Assembly: GCF_006345805.1 (NCBI RefSeq)
Contig: NC_043005.1
Location: forward strand, 84,134,001 to 84,198,000
From: Octopus sinensis
Lineage: Eukaryota
Direction of reading: 5' to 3'
Length of the DNA stretch: 64,000 bases
The position numbers were made by a program, and so were the translations under genes. The notes under the pieces are model-generated. The model was not told where the DNA came from and made no database searches. It was given only the letters and a program-made list of their open reading frames with translations. Shown piece after piece: positions 1,544-51,562 of this stretch. Position 1 is the first letter of the stretch. The number at the start of each line of letters is the position of its first letter.

Positions 1544-2410
1544 TACAGAAATATATACACACATACAGGAAGGGAGGAAGAGACATTACAATTCATTAAT
1601 CGAACACAAATGACTTTCCTCTTCCCCATACACATGAAGAGAAATATGCTTTCACATCCAAATGTTTGTATGTGATTTATATTTAATATTTATTATTTAT
1701 TATATTGTATTATTATAAGAATGTAATATACTGTTGTGCTAATAAATTAAAATTTTTTTTCATTTTTGAATTTCCAATCGTTATATACATCTCCATTTTC
1801 TATTATTTTCATAATTTCATATATTTATATACTAGCTTTAAAAGCTGCCCTATCAGGTGGATTTTAAGCTAGCTCCTGAGGAGGGCTCTTCCTTGGGGCC
1901 TTGGGCCCAACAATGACACTTCATGCGTTGAACACATATTAAATTTTATTAAACTTGACCAATATTTTTCAAGTAATGAACAATTATATAATTTGTTGAC
2001 TTGGAACTTATTGCAAAGCTGCATGATAAACAACATCTTTTGTCTTCCCATTCGGGGGTCAGTACAATTTTTTTTCTAACTTCTTTCCTTCTCTCTCTTT
2101 CTGTTGCTTGTTTTCTACCATCACCAGTTCCACCACCATCGCCACTACAACAGCCATACACACACCATTCAGACTTCTGATACCACCACCATCAATACCT
2201 TTGACTTTGCTGCCTTCCCCTCCACCACCATCACCACTGTCTTTCACATCATCTACTATCACTATCAATCTATTACCATCTCTATGTTTACTATTACTCT
2301 CACCCCCATCATGAGGAATAGTGGAACTGTCATTGAATAGTGAGAGAGGGGGTCAAAGTGTGACACACTGATACACAGAAATTTGTTTTGGCACTTATTA
2401 TTATTATTAT

Positions 2411-2688
2411 TCAGTAGTTTTATCTTTATAACGTGCTTTCACTTCACTACCGAGCACAGTTCTGTGTGCCTTGGGAATGTACTGTGATTTGTTGTGATGC
2501 TCTGATGGTTACTGTATTGAAAGTGTTTTGCGTAGGATGTGTGCAGAGCCCATTAGTGCAATTTTTTATATGTTATATGTGTCTGTAAGTCATGGTGTTT
2601 TTGTTATGTATTTGTCTGAATATTTTTTTATCATACCTAATGCGCCTACTATGATGGGAATTGTTTCTGTTTTTAGATTCCACATGTA
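2411..2688 (-). mobile_element. R4/Dong-clade non-LTR retrotransposon 3' fragment (pseudogenised)
   Basis: Minus strand reads MWNLKTETIPIIVGALGMIKK...KIALMGSAHILRKTLSIQ*, then a short 3' UTR ending in (TAA)n. Confidence 0.8.
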
Positions 2689-3352
2689 AATGTATATATA
2701 TGTCAGTTACTGGATGATGATGGGAACAACATAAGAGGGACCTGTCTCTCTTGTCAGTTCCCAGCAGCTGCCTTTATGGTCCCTGCTGCTGAAGAGAAGT
2801 TAATTACTGTGAGAAAATTTTCCCATGACAAGATACTGTGAATAGCTTCCTTACAGGTTCAAATATACCTCAAACATATTTGAATGGGAAACAAGTTTGT
2901 ATTTCTACACAACACTGCTTAGTGCAGTCACCATGTATGTATATATATATATCATCATCATCGTTTAATGTCTGCTTTCCATGCTAGCATGGGTTGGATG
3001 ATTTTGATCTGGTAGAGTTTCTACAGCTGGATGCCCTTCCTAATGCCAACCACTCTGAGAGTGTATGTGTATATATACATATATATGTGTGTGTTTGTGT
3101 AAGGTGTGTTATGAGAATTTATAGAACAAGTATCCTATAGAAACTCAACAAACTGTTAAAGATGGAGAAGGGAAGATGCTAAAAATTTGAAACATATTTA
3201 ATCCATGCATACAATTGTTTCAAACAGCAATATTAACATGTAAATCACATGGTAGGAAAATTAGAAATTAATTTAATTTTAATTAAATTAATTACATATT
3301 ACTGTTCTCCTCGGTGTGAAAAAAAGAATCCATCAAAAAATATTTTTATTAT

Positions 3353-3631
3353 TAAAGTGATGGTATGTTGTCAACTTAATGTGACAGTCCCATGAAAGGG
3401 AAGAATGCTATGGTTATTTAGCTCTAGTAAACCCTGTTTCCTGTTGGCCGTGACACATTTCCTGTGTCATTGCGTTTACAAATTGGAGATAAGCACCTCT
3501 ACCCAGCAAAGCCAGCATCCAGGAAATGTGTCAAGCCCAACAGGAAACGGTGTTTCCTAGGGCTAAATAACAGTAGCATTCTTCCCTTTCATAGGACTGT
3601 CACATTAAGTTGACAATATACCATCACTTTA
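3353..3631. mobile_element. MITE with ~110-bp imperfect terminal inverted repeats
   Basis: TAAAGTGATGGTATGTTGTCAACTTAATGTGACAGTCC... matches the reverse complement of ...GGACTGTCACATTAAGTTGACAATATACCATCACTTTA. Confidence 0.8.
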
Positions 3632-3960
3632 TTGTGCTGCTACTGCATAAATCTCTCTGAGAGATTTAGAAATGTATTATTTCAATATTATTATTGCTAC
3701 AGAAGACTTGATGGAGTGAGTATCACATAACATGTTTGGATATACATATTATCCTTATGAAAGATTAAGTGTTGTTGAGTCTAGTTGTGTATGAACTAAA
3801 TCTATCAGTTTTAGCTCATACACAACTTGTAGCATTTTCATATTCGGAAAATTCTTACAACAGGAAGCTACCAAGGAAATATGAAGAATCTTTATTAGAA
3901 ATCCACCTTTGGAACCCTCCAATGTAAAGAATGAAATAGAACTCAACATTTCCTCACACT

Positions 3961-3989
<29 letters not shown>

Positions 3990-3991
<2 letters not shown>

Positions 3992-4570
3992 ATGTATGTG
4001 TATGTATGTTTGTCCTCTCCCAACATCGCTTGACAACCAATGTTGGTGTGTTTACATCCCTGTAAATTAGTGGTTTGGCAAAAGAGACCAATAGAATAAG
4101 TACTAGGCTTATAAAGAATAAGTCCTGGGGTCGATTTGTTCAACTAAAGGCAGTGCTCCAGCATGGCTGCAGTCAAATGACTGAAGCAAATTCGTTTTTA
4201 TTATTCTTTTATTTGTTTCAGTCATTGACTGCAGCCATGCTGGAGTACTGCTTTTAATTAAACAACTTAACCCTGGGACTCATTTTTTGTCAGCCTAATA
4301 CTTATTCTATTGGTCTCTTTGTTTTTGCTGAACTGGTAAGTTACGGGGACGTAAACACACCATTGTTTGTCAAGTGATGGTGGTGGGGGGGACAAACACA
4401 GACACACAAACGCGCACATTCACACACACACACACACATATAACAGGCTTCTTTCAGTTTCGATCTACCAAGTCCACTCACAAGGCTTTGGTCAGCTCAA
4501 GGCTATAGTAGAAGACACTTGCCCAAGGTGCCATGCAGTGGGATGAACCCGGAACCATGTGATTGGTAAG
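3990..4570. mobile_element. Two tail-to-tail partial copies of SINE family A
   Basis: 3' half on + (~3990-4190) and a near-complete copy on - (~4193-4570); both match 60651-61073. Confidence 0.8.
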
Positions 4571-4694
4571 AAAAAAAAAAAATATATATATATATACACA
4601 CATATATATTTGTGAAAGAGGACAACAAACGCCGAGGCATAATAAGCATCTCAAGTCATTTACATTATTTTATATTATTCTTAAATTAGATGAA

Positions 4695-4770
4695 GTCTTA
4701 CTGCTGTTTCTAGGGTATCCCAAGTGATAGGCAAGTATGCCTGAATATGGGGTATTCCGTCATCAGAGCC
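4695..4770 (-). ncRNA. Candidate hammerhead ribozyme with long stem II, in a small TA-flanked insert
   Basis: Minus strand: GGCT-CTGATGA-CGGAATACCC...GGGATACCCTA-GAAAC-AGCA-GTA-AGAC. Confidence 0.55.
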
Positions 4771-5302
4771 TAGTATAGAACATCTGAAAAATCTAGACAT
4801 GGAGAATTCTCAGATAATCAGCAATGAAATAGAAGAGTAGAGAGTAAGGAAATGAAGTTCATAGTTCGTCTTTCTGAAGGTGTGGATGTTAGTCTGAATG
4901 TCCTTAGGTAAAATCCAAGGTAAATCCAGGCAGTATTTCGGCAAAGTATAAGTAGTGTGTTCACAGCATAAATATCCAAGCAATATTTTGGCAGAAATGG
5001 GAATGGTGTGTTCAAATAGAGATGGCTGGTTTGTGAGAGAATGATTTTGTGCTAACACCACTTTTATAGTCATTCTCTCACAAACCAGTCATCAGGTGAA
5101 CTGTGGTTTCTAATGTGTCCTTCCTTTTTTAAGATGATAAGGTAGGATTTGAGGGAGATCACTTTGCCTGTCACCCTTTTAGGGTTGATAAAATAAGTAT
5201 CATTCAAGGACTGAAGTCGATGTAATTGACTAAGTCCCTCTTGCTCCAGTTATTGGTCTTGTGCCAAAATTATTATTATTATTATTATTCTTATTATTAT
5301 TA

Positions 5303-5516
5303 AGGCGGCGAGCTGGGAGAAACGTTAGCACGCCGGGTGAAATGCTTAGCAGTATTTCATCTGTCTTTATGTTCTGAGTTCAAATTCCGCCAAGGTTGAC
5401 TTTGCCTTTCACGTTTTCAGGGTTGATAAATAGTACCAATTGTATACTGGGGTTGATCTAATCAACTGGCCCCACCCCCACCAAAAATTTTGGGCCTTGT
5501 ACCTCGAGTAGGAAAG

Positions 5517-5518
<2 letters not shown>
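5303..5518 (+). mobile_element. SINE family B (tRNA-like head, Nin/Deu-like core), (TTA)n tail
   Basis: AGCTGG...AG A-box-like and GAGTTCAAATTCC B-box; core TTTGCCTTTCA...GGGTTGATAAA; multi-copy in window. Confidence 0.75.
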
Positions 5519-5552
<34 letters not shown>

Positions 5553-5570
5553 GTTATTATTATCACCATT

Positions 5571-5762
5571 GAGTGAAAGAGCAGTGCATGACATCAAAGT
5601 GACACTGGAGTAAAATATATGAAGTCCAGGATACCTGTCTGATAAGGGTACACCAGGCACTTGCATCACAACCATATGAGCATGACATGGTGACCTTATA
5701 TCAAGATAAACAGCTCATGACCTTGTAAGTGGGGGCCCAGATAGAATTTTCTTCTGGTTGAC
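5571..5762 (-). mobile_element. Family D repeat, truncated
   Basis: Matches 20256-20460; abuts (TTA)n. Confidence 0.75.
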
Positions 5763-6092
5763 TATTGATGTCGATGTAATTGGCTTAACGCCTTCACCGA
5801 AACTGCTGGACTTGTGCTAAAATTTGAAACCATTATTATTATTATTATTATTGGTAATAATAGTGAGAGTTCTACAAACAAAATGTACTAAAACTAAACT
5901 TGATATCTGTTGAGAGCAGAACAGCGTTTGTTCATTGTTCCAAGTACTTTTATTTCTGCTCTTGCTTGTCTGTCTCTCTTTTCAACCACTTATACTACCT
6001 CCAACACTTATTCAATAACACCACCACCATAACTACAAGTACCACCACCACTGCCACCACTACCGCTACAGCTATTACTGCTGCTGCTGCTG

Positions 6093-6128
<36 letters not shown>

Positions 6129-6739
6129 GCACTACAATATCAAATGCTGCTGCAACAAATAGTGGTACCACCACCATGACTGCTAGCATGACCAATCTTG
6201 CAACCCCCCCATCACCACCACCACCACTGCCGCTACTACTACTACTACTACTGCTGCCATCGCCACCACCACCACTAAAGAGAAGCAATTGGAGACTAGT
6301 GAAAAGAATAGTCAACATCCTGTCAGTGATGATGATGTAATAGTCAGGTGGTCAAAGAGGATGATAAAAGGATGTAGGGGTGGTGGTATTATTATTATTA
6401 TTATCATTGTTATTGCTGTCACCCTGACTGTCCTACTTCTGCTGTATGGAGTGGACCATTCCATTCAAACTGACCCACATTAATCTGAGTCTGACATTTC
6501 ACTCAAGCTGGTTCATTGAAAGTAACTTAGTATACTACTACTACTACTACTACTACCGCCTTTGCTACTACCACCACTAACACCAGCACTACTACTACTA
6601 CAACCACCACCACCACCACTACTTATAGAATATGGTGGTGGTGATGATGGATCTTCATTGTTCAATAATGAGGATTCAGTTGTTTGATCCACTGAATTGA
6701 CTGTTCTTGAATTAATGTGTGAGTGACTGAGTATTCCAC

Positions 6740-8391: not shown

Positions 8392-9690
8392 TCACTTGTC
8401 TTGCCGGGTCTTCTCACGCACAGCATACTTCCATAGGTCTCGGTCTCTGGTCATTTCCTTGGTGAGACCTAGAGTTCGAAGGTCGTGCTTCACCACCTCG
8501 ACCCAGGTTTTCCTGGGTCTACCTCTTCCACAGGTCCCCTCAACTGCCAGGGTGTGGCACTTTTTCACACACCTATCTTCATCCATTCTCACCACATGAC
8601 CATACCAGCGCAATCGTCTCTCTTGCACACAACATCTGATTCCTCTTAGGTCCAACTTTTCTCTCAAGGTACTTACACTCTGTCGACTATGAACACTGAC
8701 ATTACACATCCAACGGAGCATACTAGCTTCATTTCTCGCGAGCTTACGCATGTCCTCAGCAGTCACGGCCCATGTTTCACTGCCATGTAGCATGGCTGTT
8801 CGTACACATGCATCATACAGTCTGCCTTTTACTCTGAGCGAGAGGCCTTTAGTCACCAACAGAGGTAAGAGCTCCCTAAACTTTGCCCAGGCTATTCTTA
8901 CTCTAGCCGTTACACTTTCAGCACACCCACCCCCACTACTGACTTGGTCACCAAGATAACGGAAGCTATCAACTACTTCTAGTTTTTCCCCCTGGAAAGT
9001 GACGGAAGTTGTTTTCTGCAGATTTTCAGAGGTTAATGCTCCCGAGCATCTGCCACATACAAAAACCATCTTCCTAGTTAGCCTTCCTATGACATTGCTG
9101 CACCTCTTATGTGTCCATAGCTTACACTTGGTGCATCTTATAGAGTTTCTACCTACACCTTTTCTACAGATCGAGCAGGGCCATCTACCTGAAGGCGTTT
9201 GTGATTTGTCTACCTTCCTACTTATTAGGACTTTGGTTTTAGCTAGGTTGACTCTAAGGCCCTTCGATTCTAAACCATGCTTCCACACCTGAAACTTCTT
9301 CTCCAGTTCTGATAATGACTCAGCAATTAGAGCAAGGTCATCAGCATAGAGGAGCTCCCAGGGGCATCCTGTCTTGAATTCCTCCGTTATTGCCTGGAGG
9401 ACTATGATAAATAGGAGGGGGCTGAGGACTGAGCCTTGGTGGACCCCTACCTCTACCCGGAATTCTTCACTGTACTCATTTCCAACCCTCACCTTACTAG
9501 CAGCGTCCCTGTACATGGCTTGCACAGCTCTCACTAACCATTCTTCTATTCCTAGTTTCCTCATTGACCACCATATGAGGGATCGGGGGACCCTGTCGAA
9601 GGCTTTCTCCATGTCAACAAAAGCCAGGTACAGGGCCTTATCTTTGGCTAGGTATTTCTCCTGCAGCTGCCTTACCAGGAATATAGCATC
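8392..9690 (-). CDS. RTE-clade reverse transcriptase, C-terminal ~430 aa, uninterrupted, with inserted PHD finger
   Basis: Motifs AFVDMEKAFDRV, GVHQGSVLSPLLF, LLYADD, FRYLG, LHGSETW, RLRWYGHV, GRGRPRKTW. The N-terminal YIYIY in the ORF track is microsatellite. Confidence 0.95.
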   Translation of the reverse strand, partial: DAIFLVRQLQEKYLAKDKALYLAFVDMEKAFDRVPRSLIWWSMRKLGIEEWLVRAVQAMYRDAASKVRVGNEYSEEFRVEVGVHQGSVLSPLLFIIVLQAITEEFKTGCPWELLYADDLALIAESLSELEKKFQVWKHGLESKGLRVNLAKTKVLISRKVDKSQTPSGRWPCSICRKGVGRNSIRCTKCKLWTHKRCSNVIGRLTRKMVFVCGRCSGALTSENLQKTTSVTFQGEKLEVVDSFRYLGDQVSSGGGCAESVTARVRIAWAKFRELLPLLVTKGLSLRVKGRLYDACVRTAMLHGSETWAVTAEDMRKLARNEASMLRWMCNVSVHSRQSVSTLREKLDLRGIRCCVQERRLRWYGHVVRMDEDRCVKKCHTLAVEGTCGRGRPRKTWVEVVKHDLRTLGLTKEMTRDRDLWKYAVREKTRQDK

Positions 9691-10018
9691 ATATATATAT
9701 ATATATATATACACACACATGTACTCTTAACATAATTATTGTTCGGTAGAATCAATTTGATATGGTGTGTGGTAGGAACAATCCACCTGAACAACTATCG
9801 AAAAGAAAATGTTAAAACAATGACAATGAGTCTAATCAGTTTCAATTAAAGTTTTGTAATTAATTATAAATGCATAACTTTAATTAAATTTTTGTAGCTA
9901 TCTTTAAGCCACTCAGCATACGAATAAAAAGTTGCTTTAAGTAAAAATGCCGCCATATTTGATGGCACAAATTTCTGTGTGCATACATATATACTCATAC
10001 ATACATATGTATGTATGA

Positions 10019-17297: not shown

Positions 17298-17607
17298 TTG
17301 AGACATAGTTGTAAGCTAGACTACATTAGTCAGTATTAGTTTCCTTCTTCTAAGATGGTAGGAGGTGATTTGAAAGAGAGTGTTGAGGGTTCAATCTCCA
17401 TGTAGAGCTAACCTTGTAGACTGGGTTGAGTAAAGGTAGTTGTTGCTGTATTGTTTAGCCCTTGGTCAGGCTTGACTGAGCAGACATATGATCAAAAGTG
17501 TTCCAGTTATGGCTATCACATCTTTTTATATATTAAGGGCTACATTGTTAAAAAAATAATAAAAAATAATGATGATAATAATAATAAGAAGAAGAAAAAG
17601 AAGAAGA

Positions 17608-18783
17608 ATGCACCACCCTAAGGCAGATATAGAACAACTTTATCTGCAAAGAAAAGAGGGAGGCCATGGACTTTTACAACTGGAATTAGCAATGAAGATT
17701 GCCACAATTGGCCTAGACATCTACCTGAAAAACTCTGATGACTGGATGTTAAAACTTGTCTCAAAACATGAAAACAAGAAAGCATCAAACTCAGTAACAA
17801 TACAGGCAAAGGAATGTCTAAGTGAATTCCAAATACAACAAATTCCAGAATTAGACGTACTAGAAACAAGCGCAGAAAAAGCTAAGCGTATGAAAACCCA
17901 TGCTAAAACTGCTGCCTTAGATATTCTTACTGATAAATGGGAAGAGAAGCCTCTCGATGGCAACTACCCAAAGAGAGTGAATAATGCCGATGTTGACAAA
18001 GCTCTTATCCATCAATGACTAATGGCCTCTGGCTTAAAATCTGAAATGGAAGGGTTTATCATAGCAGCCCAAGATCAATACCTACCTACAAGGAACTATC
18101 AGGCCAATATATTAAAGAACGGTAGCTTCCCAACATGTCGTGTATGTCAATAACAAAATGAGACTATTGATTATGTTGTCTCCATGTGCAGTTTTCTTGC
18201 GCCTACAGAGTATCTCAACAGGCATGATAGAGCTGCACAATATATTCACTGGGTAATTTGCAAAAACCTGGACCTGCCTCATGATAAAAACTGGTGGGAA
18301 CACAAACCACCTCCAGTGCTTGAAAATGATCACATCTCACACCTCTGGAACTTCACTATTCAAACTGACAGAAAGATAGATGCAAATAGGCCAGACATCA
18401 TATTGAAAGACTTCAGACGAAAAACATGCCTCCTCATTGATATATGACTGTCCCAATCGATATAAATGTATCTGTCAAGACCTACCAAAAATGAGCAAAT
18501 ATAAAGATCTTGAAATAGAAATTAGCAAAAATGTGGAACCTCAAGACTAAAACAATACCTGTTGTCATAGGTGCCCTAGGAATGATAGCAAAAGGGGCTG
18601 ATTGCTACCTAGCTCAGATACCAGGAAACCCCAAAATGGCAGAAATTCAAAAGATAGTGCTCATGGGAACTGCTCATATCCTACACAAAATACTTTCTAT
18701 GTAATCTCAAATTTTAAAACAAACTCATAATTTTCTTATGGTTTCTTAAACATTCTCTAGAACAACACTATTTACAAAACCAA
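17608..18783 (+). mobile_element. 5'-truncated R4/Dong-clade retrotransposon (zinc knuckle + restriction-like endonuclease), pseudogenised
   Basis: HPKADIEQLYLQRKEGGHGL, AAQDQ, CRVC..ETID...C, RHD, NRPDI...ID, KYKDL, IPVVIGALG; internal stops and frameshifts; terminal stop at 18702-18704. Confidence 0.9.
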
Positions 18784-25799: not shown

Positions 25800-25958
25800 A
25801 TAGTTGAAATTTATAGAAAAACAAAAGACAAAGACAGGTGTAGGAACAACAAGAAAGTGTATTAGTTTGACACTCGGGGAAAAATGAAAATGTCTTTTAT
25901 GTTTCGAGCCTATGCTCTTCAGTAGAAAGTAATAAGAGAAAAAAACAGAGAGAGAATC
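25800..25958 (-). mobile_element. Solo PLE-LTR-like mini-element with minimal hammerhead motif
   Basis: CTTT-CTACTGA-A-GAGC-ATAG-GCTC-GAAAC-ATA-AAAG; homologous to 59760-59908. Confidence 0.6.
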
Positions 25959-27383: not shown

Positions 27384-27628
27384 CATAGACACAGTATGCC
27401 CTCTGGTAGCTGATTGCTTCTATCCATCTCTCTATCTCTCGCGGACGACCAATGATGCTATTTATAAAGACCAACGTTAATCCGGTTAATCCAATTTGTA
27501 TCTGTCTCGGTGCAACATGGTAATTCCTGTCATTGTCCTCTGCCCTATATCGGTCAGAATGATGATCAACAGGGAAGCCTCTTTGGTTGATGACGGCGGT
27601 GAGAGCGGCGGTGGTAGTTCTGGTGGAA
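27384..27628 (-). other. Candidate host-gene exon (245 bp), product unknown
   Basis: Minus strand: branch-like TTCTAAT, pyrimidine tract TGTTTCTCTTCTGCAG acceptor, ATG|GTAAGT donor; non-repetitive island; one frame fully open. Confidence 0.6.
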
Positions 27629-28726
27629 CTGCAGAAGAGAAACAACAGCAATCATTAGAAACTTTCTGTCGGAGGAAGTGACCACTTTACCATGGTGGCG
27701 TTTCGTGTACAAGACATACAGGAATATCATGTACCAACGCCCCTCTTTCGTCTCAAAACTACGAGCTAAAATAACAACATTTCTGGTGGTGGTACTGTCT
27801 TCCTGTAGGATTCTTCACTCATATTCTTGCTCTTGTAGTTCTCATTATTATTGTCATTGTTGATGTTGTTATTATTATCATTATTATTACTATTATTATT
27901 ATTATTAATTAGTATGTCTTTACTTTCTCACCATTGTATTCCTAGAGATTATGTAGAGCTCTGTGTGTGTGTATGCGCATGTGCGTATGTATCTATATAA
28001 ACTTATATACATGTATTATATATATATATATATATATATACGTAGAAATACACCCCCACACACATATACAGACATATATACATATACACACATATACATA
28101 CATAAATATACACATATATATGAAGACAAACATATGCATATATATATACATACACAGACATATATATATACGTATATGTATACATATATGCTTACACACA
28201 TTTATAAACATACACACAAACATACATATGCATATACACACACACACACACCATATATATATATATACATATATACACACATGTATACACAGACATAAAT
28301 ATGCATACATATATACATATATCTAAGTATTCATACGTACATATATTAATATCTACACACCCAGACACACTTAGACAGATACACTTCAACAGTCATACAC
28401 ACACACACTCACCACACACACACACACACACTCACCACACACACACGCACACACACACACACACATTCTATGTCAATATGAGTAGGAAGGTAGGAGTATC
28501 TTGTTGAAGAAGGGTGTGTTTAAGCCTTGTTGATAGCTTTTATGTTTATCACCACACTTAGTGATGTGTGTGTGTGTGTGTGTGTGTGAAAAGGGAGAGT
28601 AAGAAAAAAGAAGATGAAAAAGTGAATAAGGTAGAAGATGGTGGGAAGGATGGCTGGAAGAGTGAACAGTATTTCAGATAAGGGGTGGATGTGAGCAGGA
28701 TATTCTGAACACTCTTTTTCATAATT

Positions 28727-44823: not shown

Positions 44824-44890
44824 TATATTTGTAAAAAATGAAGTTCGAAAATGCTGCTGTATTATACAATTTTTAATTTTTATATATACA

Positions 44891-44935
44891 TTATAACATG
44901 TTTCAGTTCCTGAAATGAACCTTATCAAAAAAAGT
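44891..44935 (-). ncRNA. Decayed minimal hammerhead ribozyme in PLE terminal region
   Basis: TTGATAA-GGTTC-ATTTCAG-GAACT-GAAAC-AT-GTT: core differs from CTGATGA/CGAAAC by transitions; palindromic ACATGT stem III. Confidence 0.5.
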
Positions 44936-45244
44936 TATATATAAAAAGAGACAGCTCATGCCGTCAAACACAAGAAATTCATTTATAATACACAACGGAG
45001 TCAGACATCTTAGAGTTCATGTATAGTTGATATATAGTTCATGTATAGTTGATATATAGTTTGAAGTATATGTTCAAAGTGTTCGATGCAGTGGCCCACG
45101 GTGGCGATACGTATTCAATACAAAAAACAGATCAAAGTGGTGGAAAGCGGTCAATACAGAAGATTGATGTTTCCGAAAGAGCGAGGAATTCATTTTTGCC
45201 TTAAGCAATTGTGATGACCCATGGTGGAAGTTCGCTGGGTGGTT

Positions 45245-45642
45245 CTAGTGAGTTTTTGTGAAATGCTCGGTTTTATAATGCCTGTTAGGTGGTCAATCTA
45301 GCGTAGCGTGACGTCATCAATGTTTTGACCAATCGTTTCGTTAGGTGGCTTTAACCAAGTGGAACGGGACGTCATCATTATTTTGACCAATCGCTGCATT
45401 ATAACTCCCTCTTGTTTGTTTCCTGTCTTGACCAGTCGCTTCGTTAGTCAAGCATAGCGGGACGTCATCCAGATTCTGCCCAATCACAACTTATAGCTAC
45501 ATTAGATCTGCCCCCTGTCTGTACTTGTTAGGTGACTATTCAAGCAGAAAAGGACGTCATCAATATTCTGACTAATGACTGTCCCCTGTTTGTATCCTGT
45601 CCATTCTAGCAGAGCTAGACGTCATCAACTTGTTGACCAATC
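45245..45642 (-). promoter_or_regulatory. Putative Pol II promoter: 5 x (inverted CCAAT + CRE-like) modules, TATA box, initiator
   Basis: GACGTCATC-N6-(T/C)TGACCAATC-like motifs at 45310, 45368, 45461, 45553 and 45618; TATAAAA at 45277-45271; TCACT with A at 45249. Confidence 0.6.
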
Positions 45643-45808
45643 AGAATCGGGTCTGACCCTTAGCTGTATCGTATGTATCAGGGTCAGATTGCACGAAAGA
45701 ATTTTTTTCCTTTTTTACTAAGGCATATTTCCGTCAGAGTGAGTGTCTGTTTGAAGTAGCGGCCGTGGTGAAATTTGGTTCTCCTTTTCGGAGGACTTAT
45801 CTTTTGTT

Positions 45809-47380
45809 TTAGTATTCCTGGCCCAGGGTGTTTAAACTTGGTCTAAATTTTTTTATGAAATATAGTTCTTTTTTGGCGTTGTGTGAAGGTTGCGTTGTCA
45901 CTGAATTTATAGAGCGGGTTAGTTGTAAATTTCGGATTTACATTTCCAGCACATCTATCTATGTGTCCGCTGACCGGTATTTTGCGTAATCAGGGTTTCT
46001 AATTGTGATTTATGCACCGCCATCCTGTTACGTAAGCTATTTTTTGTATGCCCTATATACTGCCTATTGCAGCCTGTGCATGTTATGACATAAATTAAGT
46101 TTTCTGATGCGCAGGTGAAGTTTGTTCTAATGGTGAACTGGTGGCCTTGTTCCAGTATAAATTCTGATCCTTCTTTCAAGATGACACAGATTCCGCAGTT
46201 GGGCCTTCCACATTTTCTAACTGCTGGTTTGTGGTGATGTTGAGTGCAGTGTGCTTGGGTAAAATCCTTTTCAAGGATTTTGGTTGCCGTTTACTTTTAA
46301 TGATGGTGTGTGTTTCGAGGATCCGGTTCATCTTTGGGTCTCCCTTTAGTAGAGCTGTGCTTTGTAGTATGGTGTTGAAGGCCTCATTGTTGAGTGGGTT
46401 GTGTGTAGAGATGTAGGGAAGGGTTTTTAATTGTTCTTTCTTTTTTGGTTTTGTTTGTCTCAGGTCTTCTATACTTAATTTAAGTACCCGTTGGATTGCA
46501 CTGTCTATTAGGGGCTGTGGATAGTTTCTATTTGTGAGTGTGGTTCTAAGTTCCTGGAGACGTGTGTGTCGGGTGTTTGTGTCTGATATTATGGTGCAAA
46601 TCCTTCTAGCTAAACAAAAAGGGACATTCATTCTAGTGTGTCGTGGGTGGCATGAATCAAAGGGTAGGTACTGTTTAGAGTCTGTCGGTTTATAGTAGAT
46701 ATCTGTCTCTATTTTGTTGCCGGTTTTCTTAATGAGGATGTCTAAAAATGGTAATTCTTTTTCGTTGTGGTCCATCGTGAATTGTATATTGTCATTTATT
46801 CCATTTAATAGAATTTTAAATTCCTCAAGTTTCTCTATGCCTTTGTCCCAGATGATGAAACAGTCATCGAGGTATCTTTTCCAGTTGTTATGGATATAGG
46901 TGGCGAAGGTGTTTCCATATTTCTCGAGTGTCATCCGGTATAGTATTTTCTCGAGGTATCCCATCACTAGGTTGGCAAAAGATGGTGCAGTACGCGTGCC
47001 CATCGCTGTTCCCGATCTTTGCCTGTAGAAAGCATTGTCAAAATAAAATAATTGTTCTCTAAAATGAATCTAAGTCCTTCTATTATAAGGTCTTTGTTTA
47101 TGCGAGTTGGGAGTTCAAAGGGGTAGTTATTCAGCCAGAAGGTGATTGCTTCTATTCCTAGGTTGTGAGGGATGTTAGAATAAAGATTAACTACGTCGAA
47201 TGATACTAGAAGGGTTTTCTCATTGACTGTTTTAGGGAGGTGGTTGAGCATATCTATATCGTCTCTTACGTAGCTTTTGATGTGTTTTAGGAAAGGTTAA
47301 GAAGTGTGTCTAAGAAATTGCTGAGGCGGTGAGTTTCACATGCTGGCCCTGCTATTATCGGTCTTAGTTTAAGATCATTT

Positions 47381-47382
<2 letters not shown>
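45809..47382 (-). pseudogene. Penelope-type reverse transcriptase-GIY-YIG endonuclease, frameshifted
   Basis: LRPIIAG, SFDVVNLYSNIP, MGT..APSFANLVM, KRYLDDCF, LPFLDI, YYKPTD, NLIYVITC..C...YIGHT...LRNRM..H, terminal PSLN. Confidence 0.92.
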
Positions 47383-47435
<53 letters not shown>

Positions 47436-47465
47436 GTATGTATGCATATATATATGTATATATAA

Positions 47466-47683
47466 TTTCTTTTATTTGTTTCAGTCATATGGCTGTGGCC
47501 ATGCTGAGAGTACTACCTTTAGTCAAACAAGTCGACCCCAGAACTTATTCTTTGTAAGCCTAGTACCTATTCTATCAGTCTCTTTGCCGAACCACTAAGT
47601 TATGGGGGCATAAACACACCAGCATCAGTTGTCAAGCAATGGTATGGGGACAAATACAGACACACAAACATACACACACACAC

Positions 47684-47723
<40 letters not shown>

Positions 47724-48140
47724 CATATATATATATGTATGTATGCATATATATATATATATATGTATATATATATTCTTTTATTTGTTTCAGTCATATG
47801 GCTGTGGCCATGCTGGAGTACTACCTTTAGTCAAACAAGTCGACCCCAGAACTTATTCTTTGTAAGCCTAGTACCTATTCTATCAGTCTCTTTGCCGAAC
47901 CACTAAGTTATGGGGGCATAAACACACCAGCATCAGTTGTCAAGCAATGGTATGGGGACAAATACAGACACACAAACATACACACACACACATTATATAT
48001 ATATATATATATATACTCACAAGGCTTTGGTTGGCCCAAGGCTATAGTAGAAGACACTTGCCCAAGCTGTCACAGAGTGGGACTGAACCCAGAACCATGT
48101 AGTTGGTAAGCAAGCTACTTACCACACAGCCAGCCATGCC
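47466..48140 (-). mobile_element. SINE family A with ~310-bp internal tandem duplication
   Basis: 3' half present twice (from 47466 and 47776), nearly identical. Confidence 0.85.
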
Positions 48141-48854: not shown

Positions 48855-49066
48855 TAGTTAATCCAAACATGAACAAAGAGAAAACACAACAATGCGAGGA
48901 CATGGAACAAGTATAGTGTTATTGGACGCTCAGGAAAGGAAAGAAAGAAGGAGGATTTAACGTTTTGAGCGGAACTCTTCATCAGAAACATAGAAAAAGG
49001 AAAGGTCCAAAGAAGGGAAGACGGAGAAAGAAAATCGCCAATGATATACACGTGGTCACATATTGA
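48855..49066 (-). mobile_element. Solo PLE-LTR-like mini-element with hammerhead motif
   Basis: TTT-CTGATGA-A-GAGT-TCC-GCTC-AAAAC-GTT-AAA; in (TA)n. Confidence 0.65.
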
Positions 49067-51012: not shown

Positions 51013-51562
51013 ATGTATACATATGTATATTAATCTGTGTAGAGTGTTATACTAATGTGTATGTATCAATGTCTATCTATGTATGTGTGTGTGTGTATAC
51101 ATATGTTTGTACATATGTATGTATTCATCTGTCTTTCTCCTTATATGTGTATACACCCACTCAAACACATACATTCATGCATATGTATTCGTACATAATA
51201 CTTACATGCACACGCATACACATATACACACATGACCATCATTACCTTAACATATGGAAATCAGGGTTTTTTTTTTGTTGTTTTGACTCCCTTGGTCCAA
51301 GACATACGAAAAATATTAACTTGTTCTTTTACAAACTGTAAATAGAATCTTTCACATTTCCTTATGTGCGTGCATACTTTTTCTTTTTTCCAGTCTCTTA
51401 GCAGGAGTTCACATATTATATTTCATTATCACATCTCCAATATTACCATTCTTTCAAAGAATTGTGATGAATCTTCAGAGGGTTCTGACAACCACACAAT
51501 CTCCACATGTATAATTTTCTTATTTCATATCCCTCTCTCTATGTATAAATATATATGCATGA

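Follow-up and report, generated by a model that had tools for sequence, protein, structure and literature searches.

The 3' pseudo-LTR (pLTR) of a Penelope-like element (PLE) family in Octopus sinensis is quite probably an upstream, LTR-type RNA polymerase II promoter, in which, judging from its motifs and from the ends of genomic copies, an array of modules and a TATA box would direct initiation at about position 45246, with a splice donor 47 nt further on. In a wider reading, hundreds of outward cassettes, each a promoter with a donor, have been spread through the genome by this Penelope family, which has two ORFs, an endonuclease and a U3-like enhancer-promoter, and one such cassette now serves an intact sialin-like transporter gene as promoter and first exon; this may well hold, though we would stop just short of calling it probable. 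The feature itself is real and belongs to a known kind; to this come a refined start, a donor seen in use, a single chimeric host transcript and a layout of two ORFs. The window (the whole stretch of 64,000 nt that was analysed) contains the following features:

51246-51253, minus strand: candidate first coding site of the XP_036361958.1 model, Met-Leu plus two bases before a donor, the only such site in the window upstream of the exon at 27384-27628

44827-47383, minus strand: copy of a young Penelope-like element with endonuclease, truncated at its 5' end and frameshifted, covering positions 2138-4725 of the 4725 in the unit

45809-47383, minus strand: frameshifted ORF2 remnant with reverse transcriptase, CxxxxCxxC linker and GIY-YIG

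45652-45688, minus strand: 9-bp inverted repeat, arms 45688-45680 and 45660-45652, 19-nt loop, intact in 26 of the 30 nearest copies

45311-45641, minus strand: five modules ATT(G/A)G-N12-TGACGT at intervals of 58-93 nt, each an inverted CCAAT box with a CRE-like site

45271-45277, minus strand: TATAAAA, 31 nt above the predicted start, without variation in the subfamily alignment

45246-45247, minus strand: putative transcription start at a pyrimidine-A step, the peak of genomic 5' ends

45200-45246, minus strand: putative 47-nt first exon, with an upstream ATG at 45222

45194-45202, minus strand: splice donor, AAG/GT in the family and AAG/GC in the window copy only (45198), cut 45200/45199

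44877-44947, minus strand: minimal type I hammerhead, core 44928-44895, predicted cut 44895/44894

27384-27628, minus strand: host coding exon, part of XP_036361958.1 (uncharacterized, isoform X2)

The window copy (44827-47383) represents the 3'-terminal 2.6 kb of a Penelope-like unit that is 4.7 kb long, and has (TA)n on both flanks and no tail. Its pLTR ends at about 44827, where (TA)n begins, and its ORF2 remnant closes with a TAA stop codon at 45811-45809 on the minus strand; part of the frameshifts in this remnant may be assembly errors. The genome holds at least 1066 family candidates, the best 40 of them at 98-100% identity, together with 692 exact matches to the family 3' end and 134 tail matches. 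Database proteins identical to host ORFs of this genome carry the name Octopus sinensis. The whole unit is present in 10 of 19 chosen loci and consists of ORF1 (466 aa) and ORF2 (765 aa), which overlap by 34 nt, are both intact in L063 and L068, and meet at a junction that is identical in 15 of the 16 loci inspected. The 765-aa ORF2 of L068 has a reverse transcriptase (RVT_1, E=2e-6) followed by a C-terminal GIY-YIG endonuclease (E=3e-6), as PLEs do, and the C-x4-C-x2-C ahead of the GIY-YIG domain conforms to the CX2-5CxxC linker of the Neptune and Nematis clades. The partial tandems with a pseudo-LTR and an optional 30-40 nt tail that mark PLEs were also found, along with inverted 5' pieces. 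The family departs from the single-ORF layout of endonuclease-bearing PLEs in having two ORFs; it works like a PLE, and its layout is a variant. The original prediction had taken the region for a PLE pLTR, and this assignment stands: in full copies the region directly precedes and adjoins the ORFs, and in 5 of 30 tail-bearing loci the order is pLTR, tail, ORF1, so that the 3' end reads through the short tail into the ORF, which identifies the region as a pseudo-LTR.

Several smaller observations were made on the unit. In L068 the two ORFs lie at 5003-6400 (ORF1) and 2739-5033 (ORF2), both on the minus strand, and they occur also in L062, L063 and L066. The N-terminal half of ORF1 is charged and its C-terminal half is rich in N, T, R, P and H and contains a repeat; ORF1 gave no informative Pfam match and an empty protein atlas search, and its five homologues, at 35-51%, are unnamed. 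A T-run-AG site 28 nt upstream of the ORF2 ATG is a possible acceptor or slippery site. The family tail carries a perfect 12-nt palindrome (L006, L012, L017 and others), and copies stop either before the tail or about 35 nt beyond it, both stops falling at an A-rich step into (TA)n.

All motifs of the ordered cassette that had been proposed for the region lie on the minus strand at the positions predicted. The five modules begin at 45641, 45576, 45484, 45391 and 45333 (minus strand); four have ATTGG and one ATTAG, in each case exactly 12 nt before TGACGT. The full TGACGTCA occurs in the last module only, and all five GATGACGTC words of the 64-kb window fall in the module region. For the modules the count was 0 in 1000 dinucleotide shuffles. 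The modules are tandem copies of one unit, however, and the conservation of columns is therefore better evidence than the shuffle test: the motif columns agree in 4-5 of the five units, the 14 columns upstream of them in 2-4. The 12-nt spacing is fixed in every module found in 30 tail loci, where the arrays number 2-7 modules. We infer from these motifs that NF-Y and a CREB/ATF factor would bind the modules.

The TATAAAA at 45277 is conserved, as predicted, across subfamilies. Six aligned copies of 82-97% identity, hand-chosen from the 30 tail loci, all keep TATAAAA, the hammerhead core, AAGGTAAAAATG and the AG at 45246-45245. Of the 30 nearest copies, 29 have the TATA box and 25 have both TATA and TCACT, and since these copies are 98-99% identical their agreement is weak evidence; motif conservation in so young a family says little. 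Shuffling produced a TATA plus initiator pair 70 times in 1000 and a 9-bp hairpin 22 times in 300, so that neither is remarkable alone. The predicted hairpin is present, but its frequency is near that of chance and it was rejected as a meaningful feature. The Kozak ATG at 45222 was likewise rejected as a conserved element, being lost in two of the six aligned copies.

The transcription start had been placed at the A (45249) of an initiator-like TCACT (45251-45247, minus strand), which was expected to be conserved across copies. Three of the six aligned copies have TCGCC or CCACT instead, and the start is likely to be three bases downstream, at 45246. This position derives from the ends of genomic copies only. 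A donor-anchored sample drew on the first 100 places among 328 and covered 90 loci there, with 92 copies; the other 10 places fell outside it. In it, 26 copies end at 45222-45250, ten of these at 45246-47; none ends at 45251-45294, a stretch that includes the TA-rich TATA box; 25 end over the following 480 nt (some of these being alignment artefacts), and 41 read through. In a 3'-anchored sample, the first 100 of 692 places, ten copies end at 45237-45247 where 0.73 would be expected, given 20 ends over the 300 nt downstream (P about 5e-7 once the scanning is allowed for), and none ends in the 47 nt above the start (45248-45294), a gap that is weak evidence alone (P=0.044). The two samples overlap, and the pairs L154/L155 and L130/L131 look duplicated. 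The peak lies 30-31 nt below the TATA box, the usual TATA-to-start distance, which argues that 45246 is the likely RNA start. Microhomology to (TA)n was rejected as the cause of the peak because no copies end at the TATA box.

Two features of the copy ends complicate this picture. A second pile-up, of 13 in 100 copy 5' ends, lies at 44899-44915, inside the hammerhead and upstream of its cut; several of these copies are short inverted pieces, and since there is no promoter here, pile-ups can have other causes. Moreover, copies that start at 45246 are preceded by an extra base that is C in seven of nine and G in two of nine, whereas a copied cap would give G. The extra C, which the family sequence lacks, stands before the copies in L114, L137, L154, L155, L185, L199 and L242. 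A single master as its origin was rejected, the C copies being on different haplotypes.

These observations speak for an alternative in which the pile-up at 45237-45247 arises where reverse transcriptase stalls or where the RNA is processed, the modules are a functionless repeat, and the true promoter is either borrowed from the host or internal, as in D. virilis Penelope, whose promoter is TATA-less and internal according to the accessible account (PMC2377424). The hammerhead pile-up is equally strong, and the extra base is C where a cap would give G. On the other side, the peak has an abrupt upstream edge, falls on a pyrimidine-A step at the above distance from an invariant TATAAAA, and is followed by a used donor at a first-exon distance, and the module motif columns and their 12-nt spacing are kept while the flanks drift. 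We consider this alternative unlikely.

It is less likely still, to the point of being very improbable, that self-cleavage of the hammerhead, and not a transcription start, sets the ends of the copied RNA. The predicted hammerhead-like sequence matches the U3-A8 core variant described in the accessible part of PMC4209133, and has a 5-bp stem II closed by G-U, a palindromic stem III, and a stem I with a 12-bp outer part and a mismatched inner part. The 3-8 pair, helix II and palindromic helix III of the minimal PLE core are thus all present, with G-U in place of the G10.1-C11.1 pair. The exact motif occurs in 27 of the 30 nearest copies, and the retention of the compensatory U3-A8 pair in a nearly invariant core, like the clustering of 13 copy ends within the motif, speaks for cleavage as the origin of the ends. 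An Rfam scan returned microsatellite matches and no hammerhead up to E=5, and the predicted active fold is not the minimum-energy fold. Hammerhead cleavage was rejected as the source of copy ends because none of the 100 copies of the 3'-anchored sample begins at the cut site (44894); the 13 ends lie 5-21 nt upstream of it, so that those copies include the uncut site. We infer that these ends fit a stall on uncut RNA at the point where the motif is folded, in agreement with the accessible part of a study of an Anolis element, which did not need cleavage in vitro (PMC11167929). Other repeat families have hammerhead-like cores in the window at 48950-48990 and 25900-25925 (both minus strand), one of them with a changed GAAA box.

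The donor 47 nt downstream of the predicted start had not been part of the original prediction, which envisaged a leader of about 310 nt; that stretch is present, but it lies mostly beyond the donor. A search of sequencing runs listed none outright as RNA; 14 were guessed by the tool to be RNA, all as contigs. Seven of the 23 listed runs were mapped. In the mapping of four runs on a tandem copy, one contig departs from the element exactly at AAG/GT, and its loose end has a single match in the genome, on contig C24, behind a pyrimidine-rich acceptor. A solo pLTR on C24, 94% identical to the window copy and equipped with two modules, a TATA box and a GT donor, lies 2.5 kb upstream of a sialin-like exon on the same strand. 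In a second mapping, in one of four runs (X9), a 2209-nt contig at a depth of 15 skips 2534 nt at a GT..AG junction that joins the donor of this pLTR to the host exon; the RNA nature of the X9 contig is the tool's guess, and its source differs from the genome at 6 of 742 nt. The C24 exon is covered in one of four runs. It contains an intact, intronless MFS ORF of 489 aa, which NCBI names sialin-like. The family donor thus has the GT..AG junction of a spliceosomal donor, seen in a transcript for the C24 copy in one of four runs. The proposal that a solo copy fires outward into host DNA gains support at C24, where the donor of the solo copy is spliced to a host exon, and is unsupported in the specific case for which it was made, the link between the window copy and the exon at 27628.

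Apart from the question of whether the family has a promoter, the pLTR piece at C24 could have been exonised, as an internal or alternative exon, within a transcript driven by a host promoter that lies upstream of it, a reading that is plausible if somewhat improbable. The contig ends just 30 nt into the repeat, so that the pLTR piece could be an internal exon, and the gene has a 487-aa relative in O. bimaculoides and therefore predates the insertion. At a distance of 26 kb, a paralogue with 60% identity has an acceptor-like site ahead of its ATG and lacks a pLTR, and the chimeric leader would contain five upstream ATGs. Against exonisation, the C24 copy retains its two modules, TATA box and donor in the correct orientation; the contig passes the acceptor without a break, so that no second upstream exon branches there in X9; and no strong acceptor is evident by eye upstream in the pLTR. 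The two sialin-like ORFs are both intronless and about 26 kb apart, one having the solo pLTR 2.5 kb upstream; sialin-like loci were noted at L081:1-3500 (-), L260:205-1671 (-) and L098:2738-4153 (+).

The window copy retains its promoter motifs but has a GC donor; the sequence suggests that it is probably inert as an exon donor and likely to be a passive intronic insertion, which for the copy itself is a modest result. The original prediction linked it to the exon at 27628, and two findings speak against this. Position 45198 is C in the window copy and T in all 29 of the 29 nearest copies; the donor is GT in the first 100 of 328 matches, and the only GC match genome-wide is the window copy. 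In addition, the database model for the exon uses another upstream exon: the XP_036361958.1 protein begins Met-Leu, which within the window can be encoded only at 51253-51246, upstream of the element. Provided that the exon really used is not outside the window, the element would thus sit in a sense intron. The only convincing match to the peptide of exon 27384-27628 is its own database record. That the window copy nevertheless fires outward and splices across 17.6 kb to this exon is highly doubtful. The two are on the same strand, the mechanism is seen at C24, GC splice donors can work, and the pLTR exon ends in phase 2 with its upstream ATG in frame with the exon (a 1-in-3 coincidence); the model evidence is that of isoform X2, isoform X1 being outside the comparison. 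The rest of the donor site is weak, however, and its GC, unique to this copy, may be a one-base assembly error. A strong Kozak ATG followed immediately by a donor-like GTAAAG lies at 27686-27700 (minus strand), 62 nt above the acceptor of the exon, and is absent from the isoform X2 model.

In the life cycle proposed here, the pLTR promoter would make element RNA in tandem copies, with unspliced and uncut RNA as the template for new copies. The template would be of this kind because the sequence beyond the donor is kept in every copy examined and none begins at the hammerhead cut. Such an RNA would run from start through body and promoter region to the end, would be redundant by about 420 nt, and would yield copies from whose 5' end the promoter is gone. 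Only tandems reaching above the start could then be masters. Two of the ten full copies do so: the 5' repeat starts below the RNA start in eight, and the TATA box is kept in the other two (L061 and L074). The promoter could be restored by a jump between the redundant ends or by insertion at the end of another copy. Solo ends would fire outward and their donors capture host acceptors; if the element acceptor lies in the body, solo donors would be orphaned, which would explain host capture. Candidates for the element acceptor are 44921, 44909, the tail and the pyrimidine-AG site 28 nt before the ORF2 ATG; use of the last of these would mean that splicing serves to express ORF2. The contigs of the four runs, which show presence and not absence, gave no junction between the donor and a site in the element itself, and no spliced genomic copy, with donor joined to acceptor, was found among seven variant copies by patterns that miss acceptors followed by GT.

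Promoters in pLTRs, the TATA/TCACT pair, leader introns and hammerheads of PLEs have been published before (PMC2377424, PMC3846280, PMC8557442, PMC4209133), and the comparisons here follow the accessible portions of those papers. The D. virilis Penelope resembles the octopus family in having its start inside the pLTR, in needing a partial tandem, and in an intron kept in genomic copies, and its distance from start to donor is 45 nt, compared with a 47-nt first exon here; it differs in its TATA-less internal promoter, where the octopus family has candidate elements upstream of the start, and in having one ORF instead of two (PMC2377424). The end of the D. virilis intron maps at hammerhead helix I (PMC4209133). 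Pen2a_Av of Adineta vaga shares a putative TATA box followed by an initiator-like TCACT in the pLTR and an optional tail, but its pLTR is about 200 nt long, its motifs are predictions only, and the accessible text mentions no module array (PMC3846280). Metazoan PLE hammerheads have the same minimal type I core and short palindromic helix III, with U3-A8 covariation in Schistosoma, whereas the octopus motif differs in its G-U for G10.1-C11.1, 5-bp helix II, long outer helix I and location about 320 nt below the start (PMC4209133). Chlamys-3_cRei likewise has a start in the pLTR and a 5' UTR intron (398 nt) reaching into the body, and Neptune and Nematis share the CX2-5CxxC linker and (TA)n targets; the endonuclease is N-terminal in Chlamys and C-terminal here (PMC8557442). 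Outside PLEs, the NF-Y arrays of ERV9/LTR12 are similar in that CCAAT units recur, a partner site lies at a distance of about 12 nt and a TATA box follows after about 50 nt, but these are retroviral LTRs of unrelated origin whose partner sites are E-box, AP-1 or GATA (PMC3730095, in its accessible part).

By the accessible descriptions, endonuclease-bearing PLEs are single-ORF and two-ORF forms are endonuclease-less (PMC6431247; PMC8557442), and the two-ORF layout is unusual on that account; a figure legend in PMC8557442 mentions an ORF1 with the clade unnamed, and this family, or a Neptune with two ORFs, may already be present in the consensus files of that paper or in Repbase. Few PLEs have a mapped promoter; the accessible sources give D. 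virilis Penelope and a single copy from Chlamys (PMC2377424, PMC8557442). A literature search that mostly excluded subscription journals found no Penelope pLTR with CCAAT boxes, and one judged by titles found no natural case of a PLE driving a host gene; the 2008 paper, in its accessible part, foresaw that Penelope could drive downstream genes or exons (PMC2377424). An upstream promoter that copies lose would explain the need for tandems, and the present data give a candidate start at base level. At least 328 copies carry the donor region and the TATA box is present in 24 of 30 sampled copies, arguing that the genome recently gained, in this family, a source of new first exons; the C24 case, if true, is the capture of a host gene by the promoter of a Penelope-like element.

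Other repeats were noted in the same window. A 308-bp tandem duplication of another repeat lies directly upstream of the 5' end of the element (47383-48015), and the RT-like open frames at 8392-9726 (minus strand) and 17563-18018 (plus strand) belong, by eye, to other elements of the LINE type.
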